Below are positions 54,823-63,444 of a DNA stretch of 64,000 nucleotides, piece by piece. Origin of the DNA: Narcine bancroftii (taxonomy: Eukaryota). The stretch lies in NCBI RefSeq assembly GCF_036971445.1, contig NC_091470.1, forward strand, positions 337,466,001 to 337,530,000, read 5' to 3'. The notes beneath the pieces were generated by a model. It searched no databases and was not told the origin of the DNA. It worked only from the letters and a program-made list of their open reading frames with translations. Position numbers and translations under genes: made by a program. Each line of letters begins with the position of its first letter. The first letter of the stretch is position 1.

Positions 54823-55279
54823 TAGAGCCACGTGCAGTGGGTTTGCATTATAGAGTTCAGTTGGCGCATGCATGAGAGTTAAGGACACAAATTCAATATC
54901 GTTAGGGCACTTAATTCTCACGCAATCGCCGACTGAATTCCAATACATGAACCCACCGAGCATGTGCACAGGAACCAAGAGGCCGTACCCAGCCTACGGA
55001 TCCTAGGAGGCTGACTAACGAGATAAGTACTTAATTCTGACATACATCCATTCCAATATACGACCAGTCATCCAGAGTGGAACACGGACGTATGTCATCC
55101 AGAGTGGAACACGGACGTATGTCAGGGATTACGTGTATACAGGAACAATGGAGGAATGGTGAGCCATAGCCACAGCACTTCAGGAACCTGGTGGGAGATT
55201 TTCAGCACTTCTTCCTTGTGTCTGCACCCTGGGCCGTGGAGGATTACTGTGGTCACCCAACTGGCCTGAGCAGCACAGC

Positions 55280-55762
55280 GACCTCTCCCTGCTCAGTGGG
55301 ATGGGACTGGGGTATGGGGGCCGGGGCCAGTGGCCTCTTCCTGCCCAGTGGGACAGCAATGGGGCCAGAGACCTTTCCCTGCCTAGTGGGATGGGGGTTG
55401 GGTCCAGAAACCTCTCTCTGCCCGGTGGGATGAGGCTGGAAGATGGGGGGACAGGGCTGGCGGCCTCACACTGCCCAGCGGGATGTGGGACGACAACCTT
55501 TCCCTGCCCATTAGGATGGGGGAAATGTAACCTCTCCTTGCCCAGTGGGACAGGGAAATGGGGCCAGGAGATGTGACCTTTTCCTGCCCAGTGGGATGTG
55601 GCTGGGGGACACCGAACTGACGGGGCTGGGGAATGTGACTTCTCCCTGCCCAGTGGGTCAGGGGACGCAATCTCTCCCTGCTCAGCAGGACGGGGGACAT
55701 GACCTCTCGCTCTCCAGCAAGACGGGGAAAACGCGACCTCTCCCTACCCAGATGGGGGACCG
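55280..55762. repeat. GC-rich degenerate minisatellite (~35-40 bp unit, roughly 12-13 copies)
   Basis: Recurring acct(c/t)tccctgcccagtggga...gggg units. Confidence 0.8.
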
Positions 55763-56488: not shown

Positions 56489-59400
56489 TGTTGGGTGCTA
56501 TTGGTAGCCCCAATAATGACGCAGACGGAAGACTGAGGGGAATGATAGGCATTATTGAGCTAGAGACTGCTGGGCCTTTATGGTCCGGGGTCACATGGGC
56601 AGGACTAAAGGAGGAGCTAAGGCAGGGAGACATCCGGAGGGCGGGCCAGCCAGTGCATATAATCATATCACCACATTCACCCCCTCTTTTTTAAAAAAAT
56701 AACCCACCGGTAAACAACAAAACCCGGAAGCAATAACAGCAGCAATTTAACAAAGTAATATACAGCAGAATTTAATAATCAATATACAAAGTGGCAGGAG
56801 AAGCGGACGCCCCCACCAGCTAGAGGTTGAGCTGCACAGGCGGCCTCCTCTGTCTGCCGGACGGCTGGGGAACCGGCATGTCCGTACGGCGCTCCTCCGG
56901 AGAGGGGGCTGACAGGGGAGTGTCCGCTGCAGGAACTGTGGGGGTTGGGGTGCTGGTGGTGTACTCCTGGAGTGCTTGGGTGTCCACCGCAGCTGCATGA
57001 GGGGTAGAGGTCTGGACGTCCGGCTGCAGGACAGGCAGCTCAGACTCCAGGGCCGAGCTTGGATGTGGCATCGTTGGGTCCGCGGCGTGGTCAGCACTGT
57101 CAGGAAGAAGGCATTCCTATTTGTGGTCGGGAGGGGGCCCTTGAAATCGACACTGAGTCATTCAAAAGGGCGAGTGGCCTTGATGAGGTATGCCTTTTCT
57201 GGCCAGTAGAACTGAGGCTTACACTCGGTGCAGATTTGGCAGCGTCTGGTCATGGACTAGACATCCTCGATGGTCATGGATTGGACATCCTCGATCTATA
57301 AAGTGATATAACCTCATAACTCCAGGGTGGCACAGACTATTGTGCAAGACCTAGAGATGGTCGAGATGCGCACTGGCGTACCTCCCTCGGGATAGGGCAT
57401 CCGGGGGATTGTTGAGCTTACCCAGCCGGTACAAAATGTCATAGTTGTAGGTGGATAACTCAATCCTCCACCTCAGAATCTTGTCATTCTTGATTTTACC
57501 CCATTGTTTGGCACTGAACATGGTCACTGCCCTCTGGTCAGTCAACAGGGTAAATCTCTTTTCGGCTAGGTAGTGTCGCCAGTGACGCACTGCCTCAACG
57601 ATCGCTTGTGCCTCCTTCTTGATGGAGGAGTGCCAGAGTTCGAGACTGTGAAGGGTGCAGGAAAAAAATGCTACTGGCCTGCCTGCCTGGTTTAATGTGG
57701 CGGCCAGTGTGAAGTAGGAGGCATCGCTTTCTATCTAGAAGGGGATGGACTCATCAACGGCATGCATCGTGGCCTTAGCGACGTCTCCTAAAATTTGGTT
57801 GAAGGCAGCCTGGGCCTCCGCCGATAATGGAAAAGTGGTTGACCGAATTAGGGGATGGGCCTTATCGGTGTAGTTGGGCACCCACTGCGCACCTTTTTAG
57901 TGCCTTCAGGGTGTTTGGGACAGGGAGCTCCAAAAGTGGTTGCATGCGGTCAGATCAAGGGTAATGACACCATGTGCCACGACGCATCCAAGAAGGGCCA
58001 GGCGCTTCATGTTGAACATGCATTTGTCCTTGTTGTACGTCAAGTTGAGTAACTTCCGTACACAAGAACTTTGCGAGATTTGCGTCGTGGTCCTGCTGGT
58101 CATGGCCGCAGATGGTGACATTGTCGAAGTATGGGAACGTTGCCGTCAGCCTGTGTTCCTCCACCATCCGGTCCGTTACTCTCTGAAAATCAGAAACACC
58201 GTTAGTAACGCCGAAGGACACCCGCAGGAAATGGAAGAGTTTCCCGTCTGCTTCGAATCCAGTATAGATTCGATCGCTCAGATAGATGGGGAGTTGGTGG
58301 TAAGCCGACTTGAGGTCAATAGTTGAAAAAATTCTGTATTTGGTGACCTTATTGACCAAGTTGGCTCTATGGGGGAATGGGTACGCATCTAGCTGGGTGA
58401 AGTGGTTGATGGTTTGACTGTAATCAATTACCATCCAGGACTTGCCCGACCCTCTGACCACGAGGACCTGTGGTCTCCAGGAACTGGTGCTAGGGGCTAT
58501 GATCCCCTCCACCAGAAGTCGCTGAACCTCAGCCCGGATAAATTGCATATCCTCCGAACTATAGCACCGACTTTTGGTGGCGATGGGTTTGCAATCTGGG
58601 GTGAAGTTCGTGAACAGCGACGGAGGGGGCACCCTTAAGGAAGTGAGACCGCAGGTTGGTGCTGGGTCTCAAGTGCCAATGCCGCTGGACGGTACCGGAG
58701 ATTGAGTGCATGGGCCACAGGATGGTACTGGGGGCTGGTTATCCAGTCGGGGATGGACGTCCGAATGCTGTGGGCTGTGGACGGTCAACGGTGGTTGGAA
58801 GCCTCCGAACACCATCGTCATGCTCTTAAACTGACTCTGAAAGTCAGGGCCTAGGAGGATCGGCGCACAGAGGCAGGGCAAAATTAATAACGCAAAGTCG
58901 TTATAACATTCCGCCCCACCCCCTCACCATCAGTGACACTACACATTACCCCTGGATACTCGTCTGTTGATCCATTACTGCCACTGAAACCATCCCGGTC
59001 ATTGGTCAGACTCGGATGGAGAGTCTCTGGACCACGTCGGTGTGTACGAAAAGTTCCGTACTGCCGCTATCAAAAAGACAATTTGTTTTATGCCCATTCA
59101 CCTCGATCTACATCATTGAGTTCAAGATCGGGTGAGGACTGGCTTGATTCAGTGTCACTGAAGCGAGGACTGGCCTTTCTTCATCGTCGTCATTGGCGAG
59201 GAGGCCTGCCCAAGATGGTGACCTCCATGTTAACCATGCAGCGTCGGATGAAGGCGGCGGCGGAAGTGGAGTCGTGGTGGTTGGAAGTGACGTCACTGGA
59301 GTGGTAGGCTGAGGTGCCGAGGTTGGTAGCGCTGGCTGGTAATACAGCACTCCCCTCACCGCACACACGGTCAGCACCGGAAGCTCTTCAGGAACGCATG

Positions 59401-60434
59401 CTGCGTTGTTCACATGCAGTGATCAGGACCTGCTGACCTTTTGATAGTGGCCCTTCTTTCCACAGCCCAAGCACATTGCTCCTTTTGCAGGGCAGAGGCA
59501 TCTCGTGTGCTTGCCGCAGAAGTTGCATCTTGACGATGCAGTTGGCGTGATTGCAGCCTCGGTCGGGTTGCTGATGCCTGATGCTGAGTCCCAGGCCGAT
59601 GGCCTTCATGGTGGAATGAACACTTCTGCCCGCGATCGACACTGCGTGACGCTGGGCCGAGTCCAGAGTTCTGATCAAGTCGATAGCCTTTTTGAGAGGG
59701 AGCAGGTCCTCCTTGAGGAGACTTTGCCGGATGTAGTCCGACCTCAACCCCGACACTCAGGCATCTCTGATCAGCTCTTCCACGCACTGGATTAATGATA
59801 TCATGCCCAGGCCCGTGGGATCCCCCAAACAGTCTTTTCCCAGTGTGACCAAGGACCAGATGAACTCTTCTGCGGACTCACCAGGCTGTTATTTCTGGGA
59901 CGTCAGCAGGTAACGGGAGTAAACCATGTTCACTTTTGGCTTATACAGTACCCGCTGCTCAGCCATCACCTCAGTTTAGGTCGTGCTGCCTTGGATGGTC
60001 AGGTAGGCCTTCTGGCCGCCTCGTGCCTGAGGGATCTTGAGCTTCTTTTCGACTGAGTCGACTCCCTCCGCAGCGGCATCAAGGAAGTTGTTAAAGCACT
60101 GCTCGAAGAGTACCGATGCACTGGGACTTGGGGGTCTACTTCCAGCCATTCGGGGCGCAGCAATTTCTCCATAACCGGAGAGTTCCAAACTCTAGCTCAA
60201 TTTGTTGGGCGATATTAGTAGCCCCAATAATGACGCAGACAGAAGACTGAGGGAAGCGATAGGCTTTATTGAGCTAGAGACTGCTGGCCAGGGTCCAGGC
60301 TCGGAAAATGAGTGGGAAGGAGAGGGGACTCGAACTTTATGGCCTGGGGTTACATGGGCAGGACTAAGGGAGGAGCTAAGGCAGGGAGACACCTGGAGGG
60401 TGGGTCAGCCAGTGCATACAATCATATCACCACA
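56489..60434 (-). mobile_element. Gypsy (Metaviridae) LTR retrotransposon, degenerate, integrase core deleted
   Basis: 5' LTR 60434-60203 and 3' LTR 56675-56489 (both TG...CA); PPT aaaaaagagggggtgaa; gag remnant; RT (IDLKSAYHQ, YFDNV); RNase H (WRHYL..FTLLTDQ, KILRWRIEL); integrase N-terminus (HNSLCHPG, CQIC, VDFKGPLP). Confidence 0.92.
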
Positions 60435-60516: not shown

Positions 60517-61115
60517 CTTGGCTTGGCTTCGCGGACGAAGATTTACGGAGGGGTAAATGTCCACATCAGCTGCAGGCTCGTTTGTGGCTGACAAGTCCGA
60601 TGCGGGACAGGCAGACACGGTTGCAGCGGTTGTAGGGGAAAATTGGTTGGTTGGGGTTGAGTGTTGGGTTTTTCCTCCTTTGCCTTTTGTCAGTGAGGTG
60701 GGCTCTGCGGTCTTCTTCAAAGGAGGTTGCTGCCCGCCAAACTGTGAGGCGCCAAGATACACGGTTTGAGGCGATATCAGCCCACTGGCGGTGGTCAATG
60801 TGGCAGGCACCAAGAGATTTCTTTAGGCAGTCCTTGTACCTTTTCTTTGGTGCACCTCTGTCACGGTGGCCAGTGGAGAGCTCGCCATATAACACGATCT
60901 TGGGAAGGCGATGGTCCTCCATTCTGGAGACGTGACCCACCCAGCACAGCTGGATCTTCAGCAGCGTGGACTCGATGCTGTCGACCTCTGCCATCTCAAG
61001 TACTTCGACGTTAGGGATGAAAGCGCTCCAATGAATGTTGAGGATGGAGCGGAGACAACGCTGGTGGAAGCGTTCTAGGAGCCGTAGGTGATGCCGGTAG
61101 AGGACCAGTAGAGGA
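60517..61115 (-). mobile_element. RTE LINE 3' fragment
   Basis: Near-identical to 22898-23490; 11-bp TSD ccctaacatat (60506-16 / 61116-26). Confidence 0.92.
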
Positions 61116-61284
61116 CCCTAACATATATATATATATATATATACTCTATATACTCTGTCACAGTAGGATCAGCAAAAAAAGGTTGTAAATTAAATTAATT
61201 GTTGGATTTATATATTAAACTAAATCAATGATTTATCTTCAAAAAATACAACCAAGGTAATGATGATTGTTTGAACTTTTGACT

Positions 61285-61495
61285 ATCAGCTGATTAAGGA
61301 CAGTCAGCAACGATTTGTGCATGGTAGGCTGTGTTTAACAAATCTTGTCGAGATTTTTGAGGAAGTTACCAGGAAGGTTGAAGAGGGAAAGGCCGTGAAT
61401 GTTGTTTATATGGACTTTAGTAAGGCCTTTGCCGAGGTTCCACATGAGAGTTTGGTTCAGAAGGTTAGGACACTAGGTATACATAGAGAGGTTGG
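61285..61495 (+). mobile_element. CR1 RT fragment
   Basis: GRLCLTNLVEIFEEVTRKVEEGKAVNVVYMDFSKAF. Confidence 0.85.
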
Positions 61496-61980: not shown

Positions 61981-62490
61981 TTATCGTAGAAACTGGTCTA
62001 TAGTGAATGACATCTCAGTGGTTCTACACAAAGCCATGGAACACCTGGACTGCAAAGATGTATTTATAAATAAGGATGCTCTTTATCGTAGAAACAGATC
62101 TATAGTGAATGACATCTCACTGGTTCTACACAAAGCCATGGAACACCTGGACTGCAAAGATGTATTTATAAATAAGGATGCTCTTTATCGTAGAAACTGA
62201 TCTATAGTGAATGACATCTCATTGGTTCTACACAAAGCCATGGAACACCTGGACTGCAAAGATGTATTTATAAATAAGGATGCTCTTTATCGTAGAAACA
62301 GATCTATAGTGAATGACATCTCACTGATTCTACACAAAGCCATGGAACACCTGGACTGCAAAGATGTATTTATAAATAAGGATGCTCTTTATCGTAGAAA
62401 CAGATCTATAGTGAATGACATCTCACTGGTTCTACACAAAGCCATGGAACACCTGGACTGCAAAGATGTATTTATAAATAAGGATGCTCT
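61981..62490 (+). repeat. Tandem repeat, 5 x 102 bp, derived from a Rex1 RT fragment
   Basis: Units start at 61981, 62083, 62185, 62287 and 62389 and encode YRRNRSIVNDISLVLHKAMEHLDCKDV. The sequence continues into ttattgactacagttcggcgtttaacaccatcatcccc (FIDYSSAFNTIIP). Confidence 0.95.
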
Positions 62491-63444
62491 TTATTGACTA
62501 CAGTTCGGCGTTTAACACCATCATCCCCTCAAAACTGATGAGCAATCTGGGTGCTCCGGTTTCCTCCCATGTTCCAAAAGCGTTCAGGGTCAGTTAATTG
62601 GTCACATGGGTGCATTTTGGGCGGCTCAGGTCTGTTGCTGTGCTGTCTATCTTTCTTTCAGTAAAGAAATGGTGAATTCACTTTCAAGGGACATTCACTT
62701 CTCATATTACATGCTTCCATCACTCCGCTCCAAACAATCCTTTACAACCAGTTTCATACGACATAATCGTAAGCCACATCATCCTTCATTCACGGCATTG
62801 CTGTCATCATCAGGAATGCATCTGATGCCTTGCAGACTCTGCCAGCTATTCAACCATGACAACTACACCAGTCAAACAGATGACACAGCATTTACTTATA
62901 TGCTCATTTTTCTTGCAGCTGATGGCGCACGAATTTTCAATAACAAAAGCTACTTTATAGGGATAGTCAGCCTGCACAACCTCATGTGTACAGAGGATAT
63001 GCTCCTGATGATCATTGGCATTATGTTCTTATGGAATGGCTGTGCAAAGACCCTGGGCTGAATCCATTGAATGTCAAGTCACGTCAAATTTATTATCATC
63101 TGATTTCATGAAACAGCATCCTCAGATCCCCAGTACAAAACATGCAGATACACAACTAGACATCCTCATATACAGACAAACAATACTCATGCAGGACGAG
63201 TATTCATATATACAACCAAATAAGTGTTTCGTAAAATGAGTCTTGGATGGTTAGTTCGGAATGTCATGTTCTTGCCAGACCTAATCCTTCTTTTCACCTT
63301 CTTTCAACATTTAAAGTTGATGTAAGCACTCAACCATTCTTCAATGGTCCCTCACCACAACCTTTACCTGTTGCATGGCTCTTTTGTTTACCAAGAACAT
63401 AAGCCAAGAGTGAGAAACAGAGAGATTGAAGATGGTGAGAAGAA

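Follow-up and report, generated by a model that had tools for sequence, protein, structure and literature searches.

The window, a 64,000-nucleotide stretch of the Narcine bancroftii genome (contig NC_091470.1, positions 337,466,001 to 337,530,000), contains a decayed Ty3/Gypsy LTR retrotransposon on its minus strand, recognisable by its TG..CA LTRs, its polypurine tract and its gene order. In window coordinates and from the 5′ end of the element, its features are as follows:

60203..60434, minus strand: 5′ LTR, 232 bp, TG..CA
60335..60341, minus strand: predicted TATA-like box, assigned by motif
60305..60311, minus strand: Initiator-like motif, assigned by motif from related copies, with the predicted transcription start at 60309
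60265..60279, minus strand: LTR arm, candidate 3′ end of a self-primer, ending on AATAAA (60270-60265)
between 60265 and 60264, minus strand: predicted cut of the LTR arm
60203..60264, minus strand: remaining R/U5 inside the fold-back, with the conserved RCCT motif first and a predicted inner stem
60190..60201, minus strand: position of the primer-binding site, which has no TGG and can pair with the LTR arm; 3 nt longer in siblings
59388..60172, minus strand: gag remnant with its ATG at 60172, the ORF being broken by frameshifts and stops
57955..58668, minus strand: reverse transcriptase piece (Pfam RVT_1), active-site motif YFDN
57351..57734, minus strand: RNase H piece (Pfam RT_RNaseH)
56692..57350, minus strand: short integrase remnant and 3′ region
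56676..56691, minus strand: polypurine tract
56489..56675, minus strand: 3′ LTR, 187 bp, with the same arm at 56565-56554

In total the element measures 3946 bp, whereas most siblings with both LTRs reach approximately 4.4–4.75 kb. Its LTRs are identical at 169 of 187 aligned bases, the 3′ LTR having a 45-bp gap, and the N-terminus of its gag remnant is similar to that of intact relatives. The reverse transcriptase piece is followed by RNase H, and an intact relative (P0007) has the order PR-RT-RH-IN; the single ORF tested in the integrase-remnant region gave no Pfam match. Three of five bases match in the target duplication of the window copy. Exact 5-bp duplications flank sibling loci L208, L210, L214 and L220, one with a single mismatch flanks L209, and none is evident at L213, L216 and L222. 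Troyka elements make 3-bp target duplications, and since those seen here are 5 bp long we rejected a Troyka identity. The pyrimidine tract upstream of the arm could be read as splice-like, an interpretation that we dropped because the 45 bp missing from the 3′ LTR have no AG at their end.

Directly upstream of the 5′ LTR lies the 3′ end of a LINE (60566-61117, minus strand), which has no Pfam match and shows very high contig depth in same-species runs; from its C-terminal motifs we take it to be RTE-like. A reverse transcriptase fragment starting near 61290 is presumably CR1/L2-like, as judged by its motif. The window further contains a tandem array of a 102-bp unit with copies 98-99% identical (61981-62596), and a unit of 30-44 nt with the core CCTGCCCAGTGGGA, which is repeated some ten times in diverged form (55272-55756).

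The initial annotation had reported an exact 12-nt complement between the LTR and the sequence just past it, and had noted that no TGG follows the 5′ LTR; we confirmed both for the window copy. The sequence CTCTAGCTCAAT is found at 60190-60201 on the plus strand and at 60268-60279 and 56554-56565 on the minus strand, and these three are the only matches even with one mismatch allowed (0.39 expected). The inverted arm begins one base past the CA of the LTR. Twelve nucleotides is also the longest complement between the post-LTR sequence and the LTR, a length reached by none of 2000 shuffled LTRs (maximum 11). The partner overlaps the AATAAA of the 5′ LTR, as had been claimed, and the arm does recur in the 3′ LTR, but the hexamer does not, reading AATAAT there. 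The folding energy of the fold-back region is −30.8 kcal/mol (z −2.6). Compared to its siblings, which pair over 14 nt with the entire hexamer included, the window copy has a primer site that is 3 nt short at the LTR-proximal end, and its twelfth pair involves a private base absent from the siblings. One contig of a same-species run (X1) skips 68 bases spanning the fold-back (window 60189-60258), which could be a genomic deletion or the result of reverse-transcriptase slippage across the hairpin.

A search of the same genome yielded 1915 candidates and 40 scored matches, 30 of which were examined. In nearly all of these 30 copies the CA of the LTR and one spacer base are followed by a 14-nt stretch complementary to an LTR segment that ends on AATAAA; across the family the pairing extends over 13-15 nt and ends on the poly(A) hexamer. 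At one position the two arms covary: among the 47 own-genome copies that match an orientation-specific pattern we counted 17 A/T, 24 T/A, 2 A/A and 4 T/T combinations, with 41 of 47 copies paired (Fisher p 3.8e-7). Since covariation at a single site could reflect the existence of two subfamilies, we tested wider sets. An own-genome search with Gag added about ten more site variants among the 30 of 150 matches examined, most of which match their own LTR, while scans of metagenome and genome contigs contributed 69 and 10 loci, respectively. A scan of viral contigs gave 13 pattern matches, none of which was confirmed. Family-like LTR sequence is also present in contigs of three same-species runs, presumed to be RNA. 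Ten loci of the self-pairing clade (L046-L055) sit in bacterial MAGs; as these are animal retrotransposons, host contamination of those bins is indicated. Four further loci (L102, L215, L217 and L221) are inverted or nested, with an arm region ending AATAAAA or GTTAAAA that is followed by a T and a reversed LTR start, and may represent antiparallel element pairs.

For the covariation analysis we started from 154 loci. Forty-seven had no usable gag 5′ end, and 26 of the remaining 107, the window copy among them, were left out for a missing anchor motif. The 81 anchored loci, in which the anchors were placed by motif and complementarity was not used, comprise 41 distinct primer-site 13-mers from the same genome and from other organisms. 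The two arms change together, as the initial annotation had expected of a functional pairing. At positions 5-13 of the 41 distinct 13-mers, 341 of 369 cells are Watson-Crick paired with their own LTR, compared to a mean of 193 ± 9 (maximum 229) in 5000 partner shuffles; because the 41 sequences include decayed variants of a single subfamily, the cells do not represent independent events. The 18 non-host sequences alone gave 155 of 162 paired cells, against 96 ± 5.5 (maximum 121) upon shuffling. All four pair types are present at several positions, and the pairing fraction is 0.73 at position 14 and then 0.29 at position 15. The register is fixed, with pairing beginning approximately 1 nt past the LTR end in most loci that have two LTRs. 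The arm ends on AAA ahead of RCCT-like bases, which follows from the anchor. Of the 41 sequences, 24 have AATAAA as the hexamer of the arm and 9 have ATTAAA; in the eight arms without a canonical hexamer the pairing is mostly kept. None of the 81 anchored loci has a TGG, a figure that results in part from the choice of anchor and that we do not count as evidence.

These results dispose of a chance inverted repeat, or an assembly artefact, in a single old copy. Such an explanation could draw on the one window pair of twelve that rests on a base absent from the siblings, and it is refuted by dozens of copies on many contigs, and by copies in unrelated assemblies, with covariation between the arms; we give it virtually no credence. 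Conversely, the family shows neither a TGG-type site nor an unconserved pairing, either of which the initial annotation had named as speaking against self-priming: the siblings are without TGG and the pairing is kept.

We compared 18 primer sites with host tRNAs, using a partial set of 28 sequences that covers 14 isoacceptors. The best matches to this set are 5-9 nt long and internal; none lies at a tRNA 3′ end. The longest of them is a 9-nt match of the window site to the D-arm of a tRNA-Cys(GCA), and on this basis the primer site could be thought to bind an internal tRNA fragment or a tRNA half. However, the sister subfamilies lose the tRNA-Cys match, having 5-8 nt to other tRNAs in other places, and retain 13-15 nt to their own LTR, which, for the tRNAs covered by this set, makes a primer of this kind very improbable. 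The control, a Gypsy element of the same genome (L201), has a TGG site with a 14-nt match to the 3′ end of tRNA-Ser(GCT), and a self-complement of only 5 nt.

The type of base pairing bears on what the helix is for. We scored it in 30 own-genome copies whose retrieval did not depend on pairing, leaving out 11 loci that came from a pairing-demanding pattern. The arm has 278 Watson-Crick, 2 G-U and 9 A-C cells, and the adjoining inner stem of the same copies has 138, 26 and 10, respectively; CpG decay may contribute in part to the G-U excess of the inner stem. A helix that acts only as RNA tolerates G-U pairs and a site that is rewritten from its primer in each round does not, and the near-absence of G-U from the arm therefore favours a primer role. 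In Tf1, PBS sequences are described as being copied from the primer into cDNA (PMC11042837). The five bases after the arm are paired above the level of loop shuffles in 28 of 40 sequences (0.63 versus 0.41), a moderate sign that a stem may be stacked at the predicted cut. Minimum-energy folds of the arm-to-site regions, whose span ends at the site, contain one inner stem in many families.

Could the helix serve only to hide the poly(A) signal of the 5′ LTR from premature cleavage, with another, unrecognised primer in use? The AATAAA or ATTAAA in the arm of 33 of the 41 sequences and the restriction of the partner arm to the 5′ LTR would fit such a role. The persistence of pairing in most of the eight arms that have no canonical hexamer does not, nor does the location of the partner exactly at the primer-site position, nor the paucity of the G-U pairs that an RNA-only helix would tolerate; moreover, the element would be left without a primer. 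We regard poly(A) masking as the sole function of the helix as quite unlikely.

The initial annotation had expected the pairing segment at or close to the transcript's 5′ end, and this is probably not the case. Of 54 anchored own-genome copies, 43 have a TATA-like box, its commonest position being 77 nt ahead of the 3′ end of the arm, and 30 of these 43 copies have an Inr-like A 31-34 nt downstream of the box; among the 18 non-host sequences only four have a TATA-like match. These motifs predict that transcription of the window element begins at 60309, which lies 30 nt ahead of the arm, and the primer would probably be internal, approximately 30 nt behind the cap.

Taken together, the data suggest that this is a decayed, compact, chromodomain-less Gypsy element with a primer site that is the complement of a segment of its own LTR, and that members of its family likely use their own RNA to prime minus-strand synthesis. 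The self-priming proposed initially is thus supported by the conserved pairing and by the comparison with tRNAs, the act of priming itself being read from sequence. We envisage that the element RNA folds back so that the LTR arm lies on the primer site, and that a cut immediately behind the hexamer (AAA|RCCT) would follow, probably made, as in Tf1, by the RNase H of the element. Synthesis would proceed from the freed 3′-OH through U5, and what little of R remains would serve in the first strand transfer. When the plus strand is made, copying of the primer would then rewrite the primer site from the LTR arm, and as a consequence the two would stay strictly complementary. Under the promoter-motif prediction, the primer would be a capped piece of about 45 nt with a 30-nt unpaired leader, and the same helix would also mask the 5′ poly(A) signal.

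A variant of this scheme dispenses with the local 5′ fold-back: the primer would be supplied by the 3′ LTR, which has its own copy of the arm, or by a second RNA in the particle, and would pair with the site and be cut after the hexamer in the same way. The arm does occur in both LTRs, covariation cannot separate its two copies, and the predicted 30-nt leader upstream of the arm could provide homology for strand transfer. Nevertheless, the local fold-back is stable and can form during RNA synthesis, and the precedent set by Tf1 is a 5′ fold-back; priming from the 3′ LTR or from a second RNA therefore appears unlikely to us, and we retain the 5′ fold-back as the preferred configuration.

The nearest homologs of the window element are found in sharks and rays. 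Neither a chromodomain (PF00385) nor SH3_Tf2-1 (PF24626) was detected in any of 37 full-length relatives, and no chromodomain was found among the 120 homologs listed; two Gag zinc knuckles are present in 56 of 61 long relatives. An ESM Atlas search with the Gag part returned unnamed arthropod clusters only. Among the 120 homologs listed the active-site motif of the reverse transcriptase is YxDN in 77 and YxDD in 41, and was not found in two, while 32 of 32 chromodomain-type rows have DD. By pattern, 18 of 20 loci of the group have YxDN; on inspection L218 has YLDN and L111 has DLDD. Since YxDN is found in many proteins with an intact ORF, the second aspartate is probably not needed for the enzyme to work.

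For phylogenetic comparison we gathered a chromodomain-bearing set via L197 (G000:C5:67169000-67178000), a degraded sushi-type chromovirus of the same genome whose homologs carry chromodomains, and a tRNA-Ser set via L201. A reverse transcriptase–RNase H tree with 43 rows shows three separate branches: one for the self-pairing group (100/100), one for the chromodomain group (100/99), in which the 16 chromodomain-bearing rows are united to the exclusion of the self-pairing group, and one for the tRNA-Ser group (100/100). A quick tree of 82 rows has the same three branches, with five unlabelled rows among the chromodomain rows. BEL loci, the short pieces L197, L216 and L205 and near-duplicates were left out of the trees, and L199, which has a long branch and an unchecked label of 'integrase before RT', was dropped after the 82-row tree. 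In AU tests on 33 rows, a single clade of the self-pairing group with three sushi-type rows was rejected (p-AU 6e-5), as was a clade with eight Tf1/sushi-like rows (p-AU 0.022); a clade with all chromodomain rows was not (p-AU 0.25). The trees are unrooted, as no BEL/Pao outgroup was extracted from six loci, and contain no named references, Tf1 and sushi-ichi included; they consequently support the statement that the group is not Tf1/sushi, but not an independent origin or a clade name. The initial annotation had argued that a placement outside Tf1/sushi would make this an independent case. The placement holds, both by the missing chromodomain and by the AU tests; an independent origin of self-priming is only plausible, given the result with all chromoviruses.

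The family shares with Tf1 and Tf2 of Schizosaccharomyces pombe, with Tj1 and Tosmo and with the Tf1/sushi chromoviruses at large the Ty3/Gypsy gene order, the lack of a tRNA site and an LTR sequence complementary to the site just past the 5′ LTR. It differs from the Tf1/sushi group in lacking a chromodomain and SH3_Tf2-1, in its two Gag zinc knuckles, in an RT motif that is often YxDN and in its separate branch. In Tf1 the first 11 bases are reported to pair with the PBS and RNase H to cut between bases 11 and 12 (PMC7175516), whereas the arm described here is 13-15 nt long, ends on the poly(A) hexamer and has a predicted 30-nt leader ahead of it. The Tf1 leader is also described as a three-duplex 'pretzel' (PMC10085805), which was not seen as a conserved feature in our arm-to-site folds. 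Self-priming has been proposed outside Tf1/sushi already: self-primers of the plant elements Tcn1 (Gypsy) and TAR/Houba/Osr-1 (Copia) were predicted, as in our case, from complementarity between post-LTR and LTR sequence, of at least 10 bp (PMC6317226). Unlike the self-pairing group, however, Tcn1 is a plant element akin to Tf1/sushi and TAR is a plant Copia, and neither is an animal non-chromovirus Gypsy.

The tRNA-Ser group to which L201 belongs is, we presume from its 'K02A2.6-like' homologs, Mag-lineage-like. It resembles the self-pairing group in its compact single-ORF layout of approximately 4.7 kb, its short LTRs and its presence both in this genome and in those of marine invertebrates, but it has a TGG site, sits on its own long branch and is not joined to the self-pairing group in the tree. 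The self-pairing clade may be one of the large metazoan clades, unnamed or defined in molluscs, that include MolGy1-16, Cigr-1 and CsRN1 (PMC6238403), which we compared by description and motif rather than by reference sequences; the term 'PBS' does not occur in the main text of that paper. The LTR start seen here fits the 5′ motif TGTGGYG given for CsRN1 (PMC3601003), while the 3′ motif of CsRN1 is not matched by the end of the LTR.

Our best reading is Tf1-like self-priming in a separate, chromodomain-less lineage. The mechanism as such is known from Tf1; what would be new is a lineage distinct from Tf1/sushi with a variant of its own. A full-text search, with Repbase and most subscription papers outside its reach, found no published self-priming in an animal non-chromovirus Gypsy clade. 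Some Repbase entries mention self-priming sites in animal Gypsy families, and the novelty would be lower to the extent that such notes exist. More tentatively, and with less than even confidence, we propose that a large animal Gypsy clade, extending from corals and insects to cartilaginous fish, has acquired self-priming independently of Tf1/sushi. It would use an internal, capped leader of 45-50 nt with the poly(A) signal itself as its 3′ end, one helix both blocking 5′ polyadenylation and setting the primer, and its reverse transcriptase would often have YxDN in place of YxDD.

In the sources available to us, self-priming is treated as a mark of the Tf1/sushi chromoviruses, with additional predictions in a few plant lineages. 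If a second, abundant self-priming lineage does exist in animals, Gypsy elements either gained tRNA-free priming more than once or had it from the start, a point relevant to the proposal that priming by hairpins preceded priming by tRNAs (PMC3601003). Because the cut is predicted exactly, at AAA|RCCT, the idea can be tested directly. Annotation tools that depend on a tRNA site would overlook self-priming elements, and in the host such elements would be expected to evade silencing by 3′ tRNA fragments.
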